From a virus, in the UHGV virus genome UHGV-1330501: DNA of 9,372 nucleotides; one strand, given 5' to 3'. Below the pieces are notes generated by a model, which was given only the letters and a program-made list of their open reading frames with translations, searched no databases and had not been told where the DNA came from. Position numbers and translations under genes: made by a program. Every line of letters starts with the position of its first letter. Position 1 is the stretch's first letter. This document shows, one piece after another, positions 1 to 9,372 of the stretch.

Positions 1-55
1 TTCGATTTTCGCAGCGGCCTTTTCAACATAACGAGTCGTACATTATGCGCACCAA
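1..55. repeat. Left copy of a perfect 55-bp direct repeat (identical to 8400..8454); contains a dif-like XerD-arm/central/XerC-arm element (21..53) and the right half of a terminator stem (10..20). Probably truncated by the window start.
   Basis: Exact identity of 1..55 with 8400..8454; sequence diverges at 56 versus 8455. Plus-strand TTATGCGCACC (43..53) is the reverse complement of the E. coli dif XerC arm GGTGCGCATAA. Confidence 0.85.
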
Positions 56-2093: not shown

Positions 2094-2468
2094 TTACTCC
2101 TGACAGGTAACAGTCTGTAAATAACGGCCTTTTCTAATAACAACACGACAGGCATCTTTAATATCAACGGAATAACCATCTTTAATCAAATCAAAATACT
2201 GATATTTCATACCTTTTGCATCAACAAACGTAACGGAAACGTCAAAGCCAAGTTGTGAAAAAGAATTAATAGAAAGTCGGGGTAAGTCACTGGACGAATC
2301 AGGCGTTACCGCCCTCGCCTGTTCAGCATAAGCAGATTTAATAGCTGAGATTTCATCAACATTCTTTCCAGACTGGAGCCAGAAACCAAACGCAAGCCCC
2401 AGCGCCAAAAAAGAAAGCATTAATATAAGACGGTTCGATTTGCGAAAATAAATTTTAGTGAGGCGCAT
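2094..2468 (-). CDS. XI: Putative gene XI protein (pXI), in-frame internal start within gene I at Met241 (MRLTKIYFRK...), as in Ff phages.
   Basis: Internal ATG at the position corresponding to M13 pXI start (MKLTKIYLKK), followed by a hydrophobic membrane segment. Confidence 0.5.
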   Translation of the reverse strand: MRLTKIYFRKSNRLILMLSFLALGLAFGFWLQSGKNVDEISAIKSAYAEQARAVTPDSSSDLPRLSINSFSQLGFDVSVTFVDAKGMKYQYFDLIKDGYSVDIKDACRVVIRKGRYLQTVTCQE

Positions 2469-3188
2469 ATAATAATTAAATCCTCTGTGAACAGAAAATT
2501 GACCGTGCGTGATAAATGGTGGCAAAAGCGAAAATGCGCCATGAGGATAATTATCTGTGAACGCTTGTTTGGTATTGTAAGCAGAATAAAGAGATTTTCC
2601 TGTATATATCCATTTATCAACAGTGATTGAATTAACATTATCACCATATTTGACAATGCCAAAGTGTACCTTTGGTAAAGAAAATCTCGCCCCTGAAACC
2701 AAATTCATAATGGAGCCAACAAAAGGAATGTTTAATTTATCTGAACGGCGACAATAAACAACATGCTCAGCAAGCGCCAGACGAGCTTGCTTATCCATTA
2801 TCGAAATATCCTGAATCAAAAATATAATATCCCAGCCTAATTTTCTGGCATGTAAAAACCAGTCAATAACAGGTTGTCTGTCTTTATCACCCCATGAGCG
2901 GGAATTAAACCAAGTACCACATTCATCAAGTACAAGGAGGCCATTACGGGATTCATCGTAAGATGTATTCCCAATACCAATAGCAAGTAAATCATTTAAT
3001 GAAGGCTTGTCAGGAATGCGAATAACGCGCGTTTTTTTCGCATAACGCCCAACCATAGGCATATTATGCAATTTAAGATCAAGATTAGTGGCAACAGGAC
3101 AACCCTTAGCAAGTCTTTCCTGTATTCTGGAAACACTAACAAGTGTCTTGCCTGAGCCTAATTTGCCTGTTACTACATAAACCGCCAT
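2094..3188 (-). CDS. I: Filamentous phage gene I protein (pI), Zot-like assembly ATPase with Walker A motif GKLGSGKT.
   Basis: N-terminus MAVYVVTGKLGSGKTLVSV closely matches M13 pI (MAVYFVTGKLGSGKTLVSV); conserved LLVLDECGTWFN and ARKLGWDIIFL; start directly follows the gene VI stop. Confidence 0.92.
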   Translation of the reverse strand: MAVYVVTGKLGSGKTLVSVSRIQERLAKGCPVATNLDLKLHNMPMVGRYAKKTRVIRIPDKPSLNDLLAIGIGNTSYDESRNGLLVLDECGTWFNSRSWGDKDRQPVIDWFLHARKLGWDIIFLIQDISIMDKQARLALAEHVVYCRRSDKLNIPFVGSIMNLVSGARFSLPKVHFGIVKYGDNVNSITVDKWIYTGKSLYSAYNTKQAFTDNYPHGAFSLLPPFITHGQFSVHRGFNYYMRLTKIYFRKSNRLILMLSFLALGLAFGFWLQSGKNVDEISAIKSAYAEQARAVTPDSSSDLPRLSINSFSQLGFDVSVTFVDAKGMKYQYFDLIKDGYSVDIKDACRVVIRKGRYLQTVTCQE

Positions 3189-3533
3189 TTAAATCACCCT
3201 GTTTGCATAATCAAGAAATTTTTGTTTTAAATCGAAAACAAAAACACTGATACGAGTAACCATAATAACGTTAACACACGCCTGAAAATGGTCAGGCAAT
3301 ACAGACGCCATTAAATGGGAGAAATCAGCAGGTAAACCGTTATACATGACCTCAGCAAGGTACTGCATTAAAAGCGTAACAGTTGTTGTAATTAATGCGA
3401 CCAATGCAAAGGCGATTAATCCTGTTCTGGTAGCAAGTCGAGCTAAAAAACTCGCCACATAGCCAATAAACAAAGGAACAAGACCAATAAGAAAACGCAA
3501 CAATGCAGGAATACCTAATAATAAAGGCATCAC
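3189..3533 (-). CDS. VI: Filamentous phage gene VI protein (pVI), minor coat protein.
   Basis: N-terminus [15 protein letters not shown] and C-terminal FVFDLKQKF resemble M13 pVI (MPVLLGIPLLLRFL ... FIFDVKQKI); start overlaps the gene III stop (ATGA). Confidence 0.85.
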
Positions 3534-4825
3534 TCACCCCCTTTGCGAAGCAATGAAGTTAAAGAAGTAAAGACATACCAGAACGTAAGGCAATAAAAAA
3601 CCCATGAAAGAACATCTTTAATAGTCAGTAATTTATCGCAACCAATATCAATCTGATAAACCTCTCCGGGAAAAATAATAAAATCAGAGCAGCCGTTACC
3701 ATTGGGTAAATTAGGCAGCATAGCACCTTTATTTAAAAATGCTTCCCATAAAGCACCGTGAGAATCCTTTTCAATTCCCAATTCAGAATCAGCTAAAGTA
3801 GAAGCGCCATCTAATTCAGAGTCGCCCTTTCCATAACGAGAATCACCACCTGAAGGGTCAGCAAAACGGCCAGCCCCCCGCGTAAGATTGTTAATGGAAT
3901 CGTCAAGACGATTTATATTATTCCTGGTTTGTTCATCGGCATTTTTTTTATCATCTGATGAAGTGTCTTTCTCCGTTAATTTATCATGAATATCGCTGGC
4001 TATTTTGGGTGAAGCACCTTCGATCGCAGACTGAATATCACCTTTAGAAAGACTGGAACCACTAGAGCCACCGCCAGAACTACCGCCACCGGACTCACCA
4101 CCGCCAGACTCACCACCACCGGACTCACCACCACCGGACTCACCACCACCGGACTCACCACCGCCGGACTCACCACCGCCGGACTCACCACCGCCAGACT
4201 CACCACCACCATTTTGGGGGGTTGAGGGTTTATCAGAGGGGTCAGCTACAGCACCTGTAGGCTTCCATGTTGCAGCGCAAACAGTACCATCACCCTGACA
4301 AACAATGACACCAGTAGCCTCATATTCACAGCCGTTATAGTAGATATAGCGACCACCATCATATGAATCAACATTATTAAATACACCTTCTTCTGGCGGC
4401 TTCGCTTCACAAATTTCTTCTGGTGTCGGGTCAGTAGGTTTTTCATCAGGAACAGAACGCTGAATATTACCAACAATATAAGCCGTTAAAGACCAATATT
4501 TATCCTTCTGCCCTGGTGAATCGCTGTAAGTACAATCGCCAGTAAAAACAAGACGGAATTCAGAATCAGGCCAGATACCCTCATAAGTTGGTTTAATCCG
4601 AGTAAATACACTCTGAGCACTGGATTTAGCACCCTGACAAGCGGAGGCCTGCATAGCAGCATCAATATAGTAAACCGTTATCTTAGAGCCATCCTGATTG
4701 GTTATTTGCTTACTTTCAGCATAGGCAGAACTTTGATAAGTGGATTTAGTAATGCTTTCCCATGACTCAGCATGTGAAAAAGGAGAAATGAGGACAGCGG
4801 AAAGAATTAATATTTTCCTTCTCAT
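3530..4825 (-). CDS. III: Filamentous phage gene III protein (pIII), minor coat / adsorption protein with Cys-containing N-terminal domains, Gly-rich (GGGES)n linker and C-terminal membrane anchor.
   Basis: Position after gene VIII and its terminator; signal-peptide-like start [19 protein letters not shown] chosen over the longer ORF to 4969, which would overlap gene VIII; Gly-rich linker repeats. Confidence 0.8.
4091..4210 (-). repeat. Tandem array of eight 15-bp units (minus-strand sense CGGTGGTGGTGAGTC and variants) encoding (GGGES)n in the pIII linker, with degenerate copies extending to about 4063.
   Basis: Direct reading of the repeated gactcaccacc(a/g)cc(g/a) units in the plus strand. 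Confidence 0.9.
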
Positions 4826-4871: not shown

Positions 4872-5114
4872 TCAAACCGCTTTTGAAGAGAATTTTTTGA
4901 AAATACGAATGGCAAGCCCAGCGCCAACCACAGCAACAACAACAGGCCATACTTTACCAATGAGATCATTTGCCTGAGTCAACAAAGCATCCATTGCCTG
5001 ACCTGCATAATCAGTACCACCTGTAGCGCCTTCAGCCGCAAAAGAACTTGCAGAAATAAAAAGCGCAGTTGAAGCCAAAGCAATTTTATATTTAACAGTA
5101 GACAGAATTTTCAT
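4872..5114 (-). CDS. VIII: Filamentous phage gene VIII protein (pVIII), major coat protein precursor.
   Basis: Signal peptide ending SFA followed by AEG; acidic N-terminus, hydrophobic core and basic C-terminus (KKFSSKAV) parallel M13 pVIII (SFA-AEGDD ... KKFTSKAS); GGAG SD upstream. Confidence 0.88.
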
Positions 5115-5133: not shown

Positions 5134-5229
5134 TTACATTAATCGGTCAGAAAATGATTTAAATGAACCGACCGCATAGAAAAGGGCAAAACCAAAGGTA
5201 TAAGCCCCGAAGAAATAAACGATATACAT
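5134..5229 (-). CDS. IX: Putative gene IX protein (pIX), 31-aa hydrophobic minor coat protein (MYIVYFFGAYTFGFALFYAVGSFKSFSDRLM).
   Basis: Small ORF whose ATG overlaps the gene VII stop (TAATG); size, hydrophobicity and position match Ff gene IX. Confidence 0.6.
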   Translation of the reverse strand: MYIVYFFGAYTFGFALFYAVGSFKSFSDRLM

Positions 5230-5315
5230 TAACGAAAGACCCCCGCAGTAATCGCGCCGAGGCCAAAAGAAATAACGATGCCAGACGCTATCAAAATTTG
5301 AATAACATCGTCCAT
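5229..5315 (-). CDS. VII: Putative gene VII protein (pVII), 28-aa hydrophobic minor coat protein (MDDVIQILIASGIVISFGLGAITAGVFR).
   Basis: ATG two nt after the gene V-position stop; composition resembles M13 pVII (MEQVADFDTIYQAMIQISVVLCFALGIIAGGQR). Not in the ORF track because of its size. Confidence 0.6.
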   Translation of the reverse strand: MDDVIQILIASGIVISFGLGAITAGVFR

Positions 5316-5317
5316 AT

Positions 5318-5635
5318 TTAACCTTTGATCTCTGCGATGCCACCATCGGAAGCAACATTATAAGTTACACCTTCCCTACCCTCCATTGACCACGCACGGA
5401 CATAGACAGGAATTTGAACTAATTTCCCAATGAAAGCATTCGCCTGGTTCATTAGACCTGCGTTAACGAGAGCCTGAGAAACTCGAATAATAATTTGATC
5501 CTGCTTTGTACCACCAAAACCATCAGGTATTTCAAGGCCAATACCAATTTCATTATAATAGCCCTGACCATTAACTTTATTACGTTGGCGGGCTCCCAAC
5601 ATTTTACCCTTAACGAAAAGACCATAATTAGACAT
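5318..5635 (-). CDS. Protein in the gene V position (105 aa); putative ssDNA-binding protein by synteny only.
   Basis: ATG at 5635 with AAGGAAAG SD, 11 nt after the gene II stop. The sequence does not obviously resemble M13 gVp as I recall it. Confidence 0.5.
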   Translation of the reverse strand: MSNYGLFVKGKMLGARQRNKVNGQGYYNEIGIGLEIPDGFGGTKQDQIIIRVSQALVNAGLMNQANAFIGKLVQIPVYVRAWSMEGREGVTYNVASDGGIAEIKG

Positions 5636-5646
5636 ATTACTTTCCT

Positions 5647-5961
5647 TTAATGCCAGCTACTGGCGTGCGAAATACGGTTGTAATCGAAAATAAAACCTTT
5701 CTCATAAATCCATAAGGGGATTTCCGCTGGCTTGGCTTCCAGCGTTCTTATTAGCGGAACAACGTTATTAGAGTCTGGTGAATCACAATAGAAATTAATA
5801 TCGATACCGAACGAAAGCAATTCTCTTCTATGGCGATAAAAAGTGTTATGAGGTAACATTTCTTTCATGTTAGCCCCTTGTTTCCAAAGTAAATAAGTTG
5901 ACTGTATTTTTCTTGGCAGTTTCGTTATTTTTTCATCACTTAAAATAGCATTCTGATTCAT
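5647..5961 (-). CDS. X: Putative gene X protein (pX): in-frame internal start within gene II (MNQNAILSDE..., about 104 aa).
   Basis: Internal ATG at 5961 preceded by GGGAG SD about 8 nt upstream; analogous to Ff pX, the C-terminal third of pII. An alternative internal ATG at 6009 lacks a clear SD. Confidence 0.4.
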   Translation of the reverse strand: MNQNAILSDEKITKLPRKIQSTYLLWKQGANMKEMLPHNTFYRHRRELLSFGIDINFYCDSPDSNNVVPLIRTLEAKPAEIPLWIYEKGFIFDYNRISHASSWH

Positions 5962-6699
5962 TTCTATTCTCCCTACATATTCAGAGAATAATTGACGTGG
6001 TGTTTTCATATTCCAGTTAGCGCCAAGCGTTAAATTTAAATCAATAAGCTCAGTTGTTCTTAATGTTAATTCAATACGTAATTTATCTTTCGTCCAGTCC
6101 AGTAACCCGGCTCGTACAAACTCTTCGGCTATCTGGTGCCCTTTTTTACCAGAAACGTGTTCATCATATTTTGAATAAAATTTCAGACTCCATCGACGGG
6201 AGTTTTTACCTAAATAAACTGTACCGCCTTTCCCACATGCGCGACCATGGCGTGTTTTAGCTTTAAATTCGGCGGCATAAAGCCATGATCTGACATTTTC
6301 CAGCGTAGATAATGAATACATGTAATTAATGTCAATACGTGAAATTTTATACTGACCTGCCATAACGGCTTTATAAGACGCTAAATCATGAGGAATATTC
6401 AATAAGGATAAAATCCTGGCATAGACCGTCAACATGAGCCCTTGTATATCATCCGACCCAACAACAGAATGCCCCTGCAGAAACTTGGAAGGATTACCAT
6501 CAATGTACAAATGTGTCGCTTTACCTTCGCCATTAGATCCTATCGATCGTACTTTCATCGTTGCTTCATGCGAGCCGCGAACAGTCAGTCGCTTAACGGT
6601 TTCCCACTCAATTGCACCGTCAGCATCAACGCTGACAACACTCCCCGCCGGAAGCGGTTTGTGTGTGCAAGGGAAAATCCCGGTAAGCCAATCGATCAC
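5647..6699 (-). CDS. II: Filamentous phage gene II protein (pII), rolling-circle replication initiator. Start placed at GTG 6699 (protein would begin MIDWLTG...); the ORF is open upstream to GTG 6741.
   Basis: Large ORF at the head of the minus-strand gene order; GAGGA SD 8 nt upstream of GTG 6699 and resemblance of MIDW... to the M13 pII N-terminus MIDMLVL. Confidence 0.8.
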   Translation of the reverse strand: MIDWLTGIFPCTHKPLPAGSVVSVDADGAIEWETVKRLTVRGSHEATMKVRSIGSNGEGKATHLYIDGNPSKFLQGHSVVGSDDIQGLMLTVYARILSLLNIPHDLASYKAVMAGQYKISRIDINYMYSLSTLENVRSWLYAAEFKAKTRHGRACGKGGTVYLGKNSRRWSLKFYSKYDEHVSGKKGHQIAEEFVRAGLLDWTKDKLRIELTLRTTELIDLNLTLGANWNMKTPRQLFSEYVGRIEMNQNAILSDEKITKLPRKIQSTYLLWKQGANMKEMLPHNTFYRHRRELLSFGIDINFYCDSPDSNNVVPLIRTLEAKPAEIPLWIYEKGFIFDYNRISHASSWH

Positions 6700-6868: not shown

Positions 6869-7051
6869 ATGGCAAAGCGCACGACTTATAACGTGACGGA
6901 AGAAAGAAAAATGAAACTAGAACGACTGGCTATAAATGCCAGTGTAAAACTAGGAAAAACAATTACATGGACAGAGATTTTAGGTTATCTGATTGATAAC
7001 TACTCTAAAGATGCAGCAGAAGATCTCATGTCTGCCAAACAAAAGGATTAA
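6869..7051 (+). CDS. Small basic protein (60 aa), candidate transcriptional regulator (possibly ribbon-helix-helix-like) read divergently from gene II.
   Basis: ATG at 6869 and stop TAA at 7049..7051; a short N-terminal stretch (TTYNVT) followed by charged helical sequence. Function inferred from position and size only. Confidence 0.5.
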   Translation: MAKRTTYNVTEERKMKLERLAINASVKLGKTITWTEILGYLIDNYSKDAAEDLMSAKQKD

Positions 7052-7068
7052 GTACCACGAATGGTACA

Positions 7069-7107
7069 AACGTGCAGTATTACCTACACTGCACGTTCTT
7101 TATTGTG
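7069..7107 (+). terminator. Hairpin (10-bp stem AACGTGCAGT / ACTGCACGTT, 9-nt loop) followed by CTTTATTGTG; candidate intrinsic terminator or attenuator between the regulator and the membrane-protein gene.
   Basis: Perfect inverted repeat plus T-rich tail read directly from the sequence. Confidence 0.45.
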
Positions 7108-7139
7108 CGGATTTTGAACAGCAACAAAGGATCAAAAGG

Positions 7140-7562
7140 ATGAGTAGAAATAACGAAACAAGCGGCGTTGAACTGGTTGTTGTAGGCGTATTTGCTTTCT
7201 GTCTGGCAGTTGTTGCCTGGCTAATGAAAACTTTCGATGTTGAATGGCAAACAGCACTGGAAACTGCGCCTGGCCTGATAGTCTGGCTGCTTGTTGTCGG
7301 TGCGGGGATCTTTTTCGGGATCAAAATGGAAACTGGCCTTATTCGCTGGGGTGCTCCACTGGCGATCGCCCTTCTGATTCCGGTATTCAAGCCAATTCTT
7401 AAGGAAGCTGCCGGAGTTCGTGAAACGGGTGGGCTGGTTTTCGATGATATGGTTTCGTGGTATGGAACTGGCTGGGGAATGTCTCTGATGTTCTTCGGGA
7501 TTCTTATTGTCGGATATGGCCTGCTTTATTGGTGGCACAGAAGAAATTCATATTACTGGTAA
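7140..7562 (+). CDS. Hypothetical integral membrane protein (140 aa, about four hydrophobic segments).
   Basis: Internal ATG at 7140 with AAGGA upstream; four hydrophobic stretches. The longer ORF from 6993 overlaps the regulator gene and the hairpin and is judged an artefact. Confidence 0.6.
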   Translation: MSRNNETSGVELVVVGVFAFCLAVVAWLMKTFDVEWQTALETAPGLIVWLLVVGAGIFFGIKMETGLIRWGAPLAIALLIPVFKPILKEAAGVRETGGLVFDDMVSWYGTGWGMSLMFFGILIVGYGLLYWWHRRNSYYW

Positions 7563-7590: not shown

Positions 7591-7866
7591 ATGAAACTGA
7601 ATCCTGAGAAATACAATAGAAACATTACCCTGCTATGTCCTGTGTGCGGAAATACAGAGATGGAACACGAGGAAGAGTCTGAAGTCGTTAGATGTGTAGG
7701 CTGCGGGAAAGAATTTACTAATGATGAGTTAATCCAAGAAAACGGGGTGAGTATTGACGCTCATGTAGATGAAATAAAAGAAGAGTTAACAAAAGACATT
7801 CAAAAACAGTTTAACGACATGCTCAAAAAGGCATTTAAGGGAAGTAAGAATATAAGGATCAAATAA
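7591..7866 (+). CDS. Hypothetical zinc-ribbon protein (91 aa; CPVC-x14-CVGC followed by an acidic/basic helical tail).
   Basis: ATG at 7591 with GAGGAAA SD; two CxxC pairs; AT-rich composition distinct from the phage core; stop overlaps the next start (TAATG). Confidence 0.65.
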   Translation: MKLNPEKYNRNITLLCPVCGNTEMEHEEESEVVRCVGCGKEFTNDELIQENGVSIDAHVDEIKEELTKDIQKQFNDMLKKAFKGSKNIRIK

Positions 7867-8345
7867 TGACAACAAGTGATGCCATCGCTTTAGCTGCGCT
7901 TGTAGTATCGATTTACACTATCATATCGTCAGAAATGAAATCGAGAAAAAGCGATAGAGAACAAAAGGTTATAAAGGATGAGCAAGACAGGTTACGTAAG
8001 TTGCTTCTGGAAAAAGAAACAAAGTCAGCAATTAATGAGATGAAAGCTGAGCTTGGTGCTCGCCTCGTAAAAATAGCCAAAAACAACTATAGGCTCAAGA
8101 TATTTAATAGAGGGAGAGTTGAGGCTAAAAATATAGAGATTCATTTCCCTGATAACGATGGAAATGAATATCTTTCAATGCATGATGTAGAAGATAAATT
8201 TCCATATGAGGTATTACACCCGCAACATGGAATTGAAATTTTAGCGGGAATAAGCTTTGGAAGTAAAACTAAATACCGAATAAAACTCATATGGGATGAC
8301 AATTATAAAAGAAGAAATGAAGAGGAGTTTTTCATTTCTATATAA
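7866..8345 (+). CDS. Hypothetical membrane-anchored protein (159 aa): N-terminal hydrophobic helix, charged coiled-coil-like segment, C-terminal globular domain.
   Basis: ATG overlapping the upstream stop; N-terminal AIALAALVVSIYTIISS; AT-rich; followed by a strong terminator. Confidence 0.65.
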   Translation: MTTSDAIALAALVVSIYTIISSEMKSRKSDREQKVIKDEQDRLRKLLLEKETKSAINEMKAELGARLVKIAKNNYRLKIFNRGRVEAKNIEIHFPDNDGNEYLSMHDVEDKFPYEVLHPQHGIEILAGISFGSKTKYRIKLIWDDNYKRRNEEEFFISI

Positions 8346-8385: not shown

Positions 8386-8422
8386 GGGATTCGATTTTCG
8401 CAGCGGCCTTTTCAACATAACG
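8386..8422 (+). terminator. Intrinsic terminator: 11-bp GC-rich stem (AGGCCGCTGCG / CGCAGCGGCCT), 12-nt loop, then TTTT.
   Basis: Perfect inverted repeat 8386..8396 / 8409..8419 followed by a T-tract, 40 nt after the 159-aa gene stop. Confidence 0.75.
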
Positions 8423-8454
8423 AGTCGTACATTATGCGCACCAAAATTATAGAG
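8400..8454. repeat. Right copy of the 55-bp direct repeat, carrying the dif-like element (XerC arm TTATGCGCACC at 8442..8452); putative right attachment site of the prophage.
   Basis: Exact identity with 1..55; overlaps the loop and 3-prime half of the terminator. Confidence 0.85.
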
Positions 8455-8484
8455 GCTCAATGCTAATGTTCTATTTGTGGCTCA

Positions 8485-9372
8485 TTGGAGGCACTCAGTA
8501 TAATCCGGGAGCACTACCGTGATTTTGGCCCCACGCTGGCGCGGGAAAAGCTGGAGGAAGTTCACGGTCTGGTCCTTGGAAAGGAAACCATCCGACGTCT
8601 CATGATAAACGCGGGACTCTGGATCCCCCGCAGACAACGCGCACCGAAAATTCATCAGCCTCGTTACCGGCGTCCTTGTACTGGCGAGCTGATACAAATT
8701 GATGGCTGCGACCACCACTGAATACGGTAAACCGATGATCCTCTACAGCGATAAAGCCAGCGTATTCAGAGTCAATAATAAGCACGCCACCACCGGTCTC
8801 GGCGATACCCAGTTTGCCAGGGCCATGCGCTGCCTTAATATTACTCCTTTGTGTGCTGAAACCAGCCAGGCAAAAGGCCGCGTTGAACGTGCTCATTTGA
8901 CACTTCAGGACCGACTCGTTAAGGAGCTCAGGCTTAAGGGGATCTGTACAATAGAAGCGGCCAATGCATTTGCAGAAGAATACATGGCGGATTATAACCG
9001 GCGCTTTGCCAAAGAACCCTTGCATGATTTTAACGCGTACCGGCCGCTGGCATTAGACGATGACCTTGATGCAGAATTTACCTGGCGAGAGCCTCGCCGG
9101 GTATCAAAAAATCTGACTGTACAATACGATAAAATGCTCTATCTGATTGAGGACAACGAGTACAGTCGAAGAGCCATCGGCAAGTATATTGATGTCTGGC
9201 ATTATCCTGACGGACATAAGGAGCTGCGACTAAATGGCGTGCTGCTACCCTACTCCACCTATGACCGGCTTTCTGAGGTTGAGCCCGTCGCCATTGTAGA
9301 TAACAAGAGACTTGGCCATGTGTTGGATGTTGCCCGTCAGGTCCAGAGAAAACGGGACAATAATCGCTCACT
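8485..9372 (+). pseudogene. DDE-type transposase of an insertion sequence (retroviral-integrase-like catalytic core), interrupted by a frameshift near 8719 and running off the window end; family not determined.
   Basis: Frame 1 (TTG start 8485) ends ...IQIDGCDHH at TGA 8719..8721; frame 2 continues from 8720 with EYGKPMILYSDKASVF ... AKGRVERAHLTLQDRL (DDE-like D, D, E motifs), open to 9372. Confidence 0.7.

Follow-up and report, generated by a model that had tools for sequence, protein, structure and literature searches.

The window analysed here, a stretch of DNA 9,372 nt in length, carries in the gene V position of a filamentous phage genome an open reading frame whose 105-aa product is probably the phage's gVp-like ssDNA-coating protein, the gene V equivalent of a UPphi-type prophage; we put the probability of this reading at roughly 80%. 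Judged by sequence, the protein belongs to PF17426, an established and named family that was originally recognised in phage I2-2 and that does not include the gVp of the Ff phages. Ff gVp is a homodimer that coats ssDNA cooperatively and represses translation of gene II, and it is only by analogy with such a protein that we infer ssDNA binding, cooperativity, an oligomeric state or any translational-repressor role for the protein described here. The minus strand of the window carries a complete gene set of a filamentous phage, each gene being confirmed by Pfam and PHROG assignments; the features are collected in Table 1.

Table 1. Features of the window and the evidence for their assignment (positions are those of the whole 9,372-nt stretch).
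Feature	Coordinates	Strand	Description
Gene V-slot ORF	5318-5635	minus	105 aa; ATG start; stop codon inside the coordinates; I2-2-type putative ssDNA-binding protein, PF17426
Gene II/gene V spacer	5636-5646	minus	11 nt; Shine-Dalgarno AGGA at 5643-5646, 7 nt upstream of the gene V-slot ATG
Gene II, rolling-circle initiator	5647-6699	minus	350 aa; GTG at 6699 after GAGGA; longest ORF reaches 6741; PF05144 E 9e-70, PF05155 E 2e-29, TIGR01629 rep_II_X; RefSeq CDS of 1053 nt
Probable gene X	5647-5961	minus	104 aa; in-frame internal ATG at 5961 after GGGAGA; phrog_17464 matches pII residues 261-360; annotated likewise in the I2-2 and M13 records
Gene VII, minor coat	5229-5315	minus	28 aa; 70% identity to IKe/I2-2 pVII; RefSeq 'tail virion protein G7P-2'
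Gene IX, minor coat	5134-5229	minus	31 aa, MYIVYFFGAYTFGFALFYAVGSFKSFSDRLM; aligned by eye with IKe/I2-2 pIX
Gene VIII, major coat precursor	4872-5114	minus	80 aa; PF19199 E 3e-19; 60% identity to IKe, 48% to M13
Gene III, attachment protein	3530-4825	minus	431 aa from MRRKIL; (GGGES)n linker; PF21443 and PF05357; 51% identity to IKe pIII
Gene VI, minor coat	3189-3533	minus	phrog_1944; 53% identity to I2-2, 35% to M13
Gene I, Zot-type assembly ATPase	2094-3188	minus	PF05707 E 6e-41; 65% identity to IKe/I2-2, 54% to M13
Gene IV, secretin	821-2086	minus	421 aa from MRSVIV; PF00263 E 7e-43; 73% identity to I2-2, 50% to M13
Accessory ORFs	92-325, 443-751	minus	downstream of gene IV
Accessory ORFs	6869-7051, 6993-7562, 7591-7866, 7866-8345	plus	beyond gene II

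The ORF is a genuine gene, because identical copies of it are widespread, its product shares conserved columns with 96 relatives and is predicted to fold with confidence, and its ATG is preceded by a Shine-Dalgarno sequence. The identical 105-aa protein is encoded on at least 1000 contigs and falls in a 415-member cluster, and the ORF is conserved at 99% or more in 48 of 5426 complete E. coli genomes, where it is usually present in two or more tandem copies and always annotated as "DNA-binding protein" (the RefSeq name in strain UM146 is likewise 'DNA-binding protein', WP_000073833.1). The missing match to Ff gVp is the one point that would favour a spurious open reading frame or the remains of a decayed gene, leaving the slot without a functional gene; set against the exact copies on that many contigs, the conservation among E. 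coli genomes and across 96 diverse family members, the high-confidence predicted fold and the Shine-Dalgarno sequence and ATG, the likelihood of such an origin is practically negligible. Read directly from the sequence, the ORF begins 11 nt downstream of gene II, whose stop codon is at 5647-5649, and the gene VII ATG comes 2 nt past its end. The spacing between genes II and V of M13 is also 11 nt (in the GenBank record, 831 is the last position of gene II and 843 the first of gene V). The product lacks a signal peptide, a linker and an acidic tail, and its C-terminus (...SDGGIAEIKG) lies directly past the last predicted strand, β5.

The match to PF17426 ("Putative Gamma DNA binding protein G5P", Putative_G5P) has an E value of 8.3e-51 and 171.1 bits, with a cutoff of 25, and aligns residues 2-104 with profile positions 1-108 of 108; I2-2 gVp itself scores 88.6 bits against the same model. 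The protein also matches phrog_1547 (E 4e-51), and its alignment of 102 aa with the gene V product of I2-2 (NP_039617; tblastn E 6e-21 in 2.3 Gb of phage records) shows 39% identity; the family profile aligned with this I2-2 protein at an hhalign probability of 99%. A profile search gathered 127 homologues at E ≤ 1e-3 from Enterobacterales, Pasteurellaceae and Pseudomonas/Stutzerimonas, many of them on contigs of 6-9 kb. In six phages (I2-2, Inovirus D_HF2_144, Dulem virus 55, Pseudomonas phages 97-1 and 42-1, and blackswan219-1) the replication gene is followed directly by the homologue and then by the small coat genes, and all six replication genes are of the G2P type (PF05144 and/or PF05155).

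The I2-2 gene V product thus resembles the 105-aa protein in its full-length homology (108 versus 105 aa), in its slot between gene II/X and gene VII and in its company with a G2P-type Rep, but the two are only 39% identical, and I2-2 is a free-replicating, plasmid-pilus-specific phage (PMC7307601), whereas the window holds a dif-integrated prophage with accessory genes. Position and size are the basis of the designations 'gene V product' and 'DNA-binding protein', and in the literature we found neither a biochemical or genetic experiment on any PF17426 member nor a purified or solved protein. A review of Ypfphi describes disruption of the gene II homologue YPO2274; disruption of YPO2275, the gene of the PF17426-type protein of Ypfphi, is not reported in it. 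Repeated stretches in four large proteins of 690-4005 aa (P0147, P0153, P0159 and P0170, from a library of 1.8 billion representatives; 5-8 stretches in each) also match residues ~24-62 at E values of 1e-7 to 5e-4; these matches could be repeat-protein noise or a reused β-hairpin motif.

The protein was compared with the ssDNA-binding proteins of M13, IKe, If1, Pf3, Pf1 and VGJphi, all taken from GenBank records. In an unmasked BLASTP search of an 11-sequence database with word size 2, the best score was 12.7 bits to M13 gVp and 10 bits to IKe gVp. Neither PF02303 nor PF17878 matched the protein at E ≤ 1 or any of its 96 relatives at E ≤ 10, whereas the M13, IKe and Pf3 proteins match one another's Pfam models. 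Profile comparison by hhalign of the PF17426-type family with the Ff/IKe gVp family returned a probability of 0.2%, and hmmsearch --max with the family profile assigned negative bits to all six inovirus proteins, including VGJphi ORF112, with hhalign probabilities of 0.2% or less. When the 96-sequence family profile was searched against the PDB, no chain was found at E ≤ 0.9 and no gVp chain at E ≤ 10; the PDB contains at least 16 distinct gVp sequences, so gVp entries were present in this search. A single-sequence search of 1.8 billion representatives added no characterised relatives, and no NCBIfam model matched the protein. The initial annotation had stated that the protein shows no obvious similarity to M13 gVp and is longer, and on both points it was right (105 versus 87 aa). 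It had also named a significant alignment to Ff gVp or another characterised inovirus ssDNA-binding protein as the observation that would tell against it; we obtained a highly significant alignment with the I2-2 gene V product, which answers to that description only in part because, as far as we could find, the protein is named from its position and not from biochemistry, and none with Ff gVp.

Cellular SSBs were likewise not recognised by sequence. E. coli SSB (the query was verified to be identical to 1EQQ_A) scored -1.1 bits by hmmsearch --max with the family profile and 0.1% or less by hhalign; an SSB alignment of 62 distinct viral-contig sequences also gave 0.1% or less, a weak test in view of the low diversity of that alignment (86-96% identity); and PF00436 matched neither the 105-aa protein nor its 96 relatives. 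In a local hhalign alignment W82 was paired with W88 of E. coli SSB (P = 0.72), a pairing that serves as illustration only.

The Pf3 ssDNA-binding protein (PF17878; PDB 1PFS), the Pf1 gene 5 protein, If1 gVp and VGJphi ORF112 (DUF1293; a possible pV analogue according to its record annotation) share the slot and the presumed role with the 105-aa protein, but the PF17426-type profile recognises none of them. The If1 protein (96 aa; locus L010, 1-291), annotated as an ss-DNA binding protein, matched no Pfam family at E ≤ 1. Its sequence is related neither to the Ff gVp family nor to PF17426, so that yet another sequence family may occupy the gene V slot in If1. As far as sequence comparison can tell, several families without mutual similarity take up this slot among the inoviruses.

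Structure prediction, which the initial annotation had suggested as a check for an OB-like fold, gave a positive answer. The AF2 model of the 105-aa protein, built with a 96-sequence family alignment, has a mean pLDDT of 92.5 and a pTM of 0.82, and consists of β1 (6-19), β2 (26-37), β3 (43-52), two helices (54-58 and 61-67), β4 (72-84) and β5 (87-94). The predicted order β1-β2-β3-helix-β4-β5 is the canonical order of an OB fold. Nearly all of the best 50 Foldseek matches in the PDB are bacterial-type SSBs; a single organellar SSB from Plasmodium and a single editosome OB protein are also among them. The top E value is 2e-5 with a probability of 1.00, and TM-scores are only ~0.5. The best matches in BFVD are phage SSBs, among them the SSB of Thermus phage OH3, an inovirus. 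Ff gVp is absent among the structural matches listed by either search. Modelled by AF2, an Ff gVp with 98% identity to that of M13 is all-beta, with no helix of four or more residues. The predicted fold looks nearer to that of a cellular SSB than to that of Ff gVp.

Conservation over the 96 family members is concentrated in residues that, in the model, would suit an ssDNA-binding face. W82 is present in 100% of the sequences, position 40 is aromatic in 99% and position 78 in 96%, position 51 is basic in 99%, K71 is kept in 96%, and several structural glycines are conserved; the median net charge of the family is +3. Residue 40 is placed at the tip of the β2-β3 hairpin, and residues 78 and W82 lie on β4. 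The predicted protein therefore invites comparison with two groups. It would share an OB fold and SSB-like topology with the homotetrameric SSBs of bacteria and mitochondria (PF00436; 1EYG/1EQQ, Rim1 6CQK, human mtSSB 8UZT), but these have a Gly/Pro-rich linker and an acidic C-terminal tip for partner recruitment that are absent here, where the protein ends ...IAEIKG, and they show no sequence or profile similarity to it and TM-scores of only ~0.5. With Ff/IKe gVp (PF02303; PDB 1VQB, 1GVP) it has in common the genomic slot, the operon spacing, a small cytoplasmic β-barrel predicted to be of the OB class and, by analogy, the presumed role of coating the plus strand and handing it over to the assembly machine. 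It differs from these proteins in length (105 versus 87-88 aa), in lacking any detectable sequence or profile similarity and, when the two AF2 models are compared, in a helical insert between β3 and β4 that the Ff gVp model does not have.

On balance, the sequence and model data lean towards an origin from a lineage other than gVp, because there is no profile signal between families where the M13, IKe and Pf3 proteins do cross-match, because the protein has a predicted helical insert and because its structural neighbours are SSBs. It is unlikely, in our estimation, that the protein is instead a highly diverged Ff gVp orthologue that descended vertically in a G2P-type replication module until its similarity decayed past detection. 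Ff gVp is classed as having an OB-like fold, and both proteins would be small OB-type barrels; the slot and operon spacing equal those of M13, and the neighbouring Rep shows profile-level homology to Ff pII (PF05144/PF05155). Moreover, pII itself is already down to 23% identity, so a faster-evolving protein of 100 aa could plausibly become unrecognisable. These points have to be set against the hhalign probability of 0.2%, the failure of any family member to match PF02303 or PF17878 at E ≤ 10 while the M13, IKe and Pf3 proteins cross-match, and the helical segment at 54-67 between β3 and β4, where the Ff gVp model is all-beta. We retain vertical descent from gVp among the candidates because a sequence signal to SSBs is also absent and TM-scores reach only ~0.5.

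A more specific version of the non-gVp origin is possible, and we offer it tentatively: PF17426 would be an SSB-lineage OB domain without the linker and C-terminal tip, gained together with the gene II variant when an inovirus recombined with another rolling-circle replicon, and it would have displaced a gVp-type protein in I2-2, Ypfphi and UPphi, in the Pasteurellaceae inoviruses and in some Pseudomonas inoviruses. If this were so, ssDNA packaging in these phages might differ in stoichiometry or geometry from that by the gVp dimer, for example through SSB-like wrapping or tetramers, and in dif-integrating members the protein might also present folded ssDNA attP to XerCD.

The genes around the ORF divide into two groups by their relatives. 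The initial annotation had described the neighbouring genes as clearly Ff-like, and for the coat and assembly genes the description stands: identity to the M13 proteins is 54% for pI, 50% for pIV, 35% for pVI and 48% for pVIII (E 1e-12 to 1e-144), and pI, pIII, pIV, pVI and pVIII are 51-73% identical to their IKe/I2-2 counterparts. It does not extend to the upstream pII, which is 56% identical to I2-2 pII versus 23% to the pII of M13 and of IKe; similarly, pV is 39% identical to I2-2 gVp and shows no match to those of M13, IKe and If1. Because gene II matches I2-2 so much better than M13, the whole replication module, and not the gene V-slot ORF alone, is of the I2-2/Ypfphi type. Of the options that had been raised for the slot, a divergent or replaced ssDNA-binding protein or one with a different function, replacement of the ssDNA-binding protein is favoured because the protein belongs to PF17426 rather than PF02303 and is predicted to adopt an OB fold, but the replacement would not be an isolated swap, given that gene II is also of a non-Ff type.

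A parallel split separates IKe from I2-2: IKe gVp belongs to PF02303 and I2-2 gVp to PF17426, though the morphogenesis genes of the two phages are near-identical. An exchange of replication modules was reportedly proposed for I2-2 by Stassen and colleagues in 1992. For UPphi, genes II and V have been described as a separate module that is common to Ypfphi (Shapiro & Putonti 2020; PMC7307601), these genes being less than 15% similar to those of IKe and M13 and more than 85% identical to those of Ypfphi. We suggest that gene V came with genes II and X as a single replication module, distinct from the Ff/IKe replication module, and was joined to an IKe-like coat and assembly module.

The gene, the family name, the RefSeq annotation and the mosaicism of genes II and V are thus already on record, and the core finding is already published, because the window is a UPphi-type prophage and the II+V module split is described in PMC7307601. 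The window provides a clean example of an inovirus genome assembled from exchangeable replication and morphogenesis modules. What remains of interest is that the fold predicted for PF17426 is of the SSB kind and not of the gVp kind. Describing the family biochemically would close an annotation gap, and the gap is a real one because prophages of uropathogenic E. coli, Salmonella, Klebsiella and Y. pestis have this module.

Several features of the window indicate that it contains a dif-integrated, Lineavirus-like E. coli prophage of the UPphi type. The published UPphi901 primers anneal within gene III, the forward primer exactly at 4226-4245 and the reverse primer at 4676-4695 with 2 mismatches. 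UPphi is described as having core genes ~70% identical to those of IKe/I2-2, integration at dif, two extra ORFs downstream of gene IV and reverse-oriented ORFs beyond gene II on the other side of the unit (PMC7307601). E. coli UM146 carries a prophage with 99.7% identity to the element in the window; it adjoins a perfect dif beside hipBA, and this dif, at 2988-3015 of locus L002, borders the window-matching region on its left side. A phage unit of 8389 bp is bounded by an exact direct repeat of 55 bp (window positions 1-55 and 8390-8444), and each copy of the repeat contains on the minus strand the dif-like site GGTGCGCATAATGTAcgactcgttatgt, which agrees with E. coli dif in the first 15 of its 28 bases; no perfect E. 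coli dif is present within the 9,372-nt window. The repeats fit integration of the XerCD type, possibly in tandem copies, as described for UPphi (PMC7307601).

A location at dif beside hipBA in a B2 strain had suggested that the prophage is CUS-1/Ypfphi. This identity was rejected because Ypfphi/CUS resemble UPphi only in genes II and V, with under 20-30% identity elsewhere (PMC7307601), whereas the coat and assembly genes of the window are 51-73% identical to those of IKe/I2-2 and the UPphi primer sites are present.

If the 105-aa protein is the ssDNA-coating protein of this prophage, its action could be pictured as follows. pII would nick the replicative form, and rolling-circle synthesis would displace the plus strand. 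As the 105-aa protein builds up, it would coat the displaced ssDNA cooperatively through its OB-fold surface, on which the aromatic residues F/Y40, F/Y78 and W82 and the basic residues K/R51 and K71 would lie, and the coat would prevent the return to double-stranded DNA. The resulting nucleoprotein rod would then pass to the pI/pIV export machine, where pVIII would take the place of the protein.

The initial annotation had also raised the prospect of a different function in the conserved slot, and we found nothing in support of it. The form that such a function might take is suggested by RstB of CTXphi, which has a cofactor-type role in the XerCD-mediated integration of the ssDNA genome at dif. 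By comparison, the main or an additional job of the 105-aa protein might be that of a XerCD cofactor for ssDNA integration at dif, or of a regulator of replication or translation, instead of bulk packaging. The location of the prophage at a dif-like site, with dif-like repeats bounding the unit, is compatible with this, as is the integration at dif of both UPphi and Ypfphi, which carry the same II+V module (PMC7307601). However, non-integrating I2-2 has a PF17426 member in the same slot (PMC7307601), the 8.4-kb unit is without any other candidate SSB gene by ORF list, Pfam and PHROG, and the family has no match to VGJphi ORF112 (DUF1293); we therefore regard a role other than coating as very unlikely, and favour the ssDNA-coating protein.

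Among the other genes of the unit, gene IX encodes a product with clear similarity to the pIX of IKe and I2-2; its ATG and the gene VII stop codon share one base (TAATG), and the UM146 RefSeq record has no CDS at gene IX. The two accessory ORFs downstream of gene IV are probably the 'h1/h2' genes of UPphi. Of the accessory ORFs on the plus strand, one encodes an ECs_2282-family CxxC zinc-binding protein (NF047912, E 4e-18), another a predicted membrane protein and a third a 159-aa protein without a family match.

The similarity to the UM146 context is lost right after the right-hand dif-like repeat. Pfam matched neither reading-frame piece of the segment that follows (8445-9372), in which the frame is broken into a 78-aa N-terminal ORF at 8485-8721 and a continuation in another frame; the segment is 100% identical to an element annotated as 'ISNCY family transposase' and is found in 864 of 5426 E. 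coli genomes, mostly on plasmids.

In the pIII linker, at 3990-4215 on the minus strand, roughly nine GGGES repeats precede GGGSS repeats. Alignments of the window to other E. coli prophages are split into two or three pieces, and the match in UM146 falls 35 bp short of the length of the window query. Both observations would fit variation in the copy number of the pIII linker repeat, and variation in g3p repeat copy number is also mentioned in PMC7307601.
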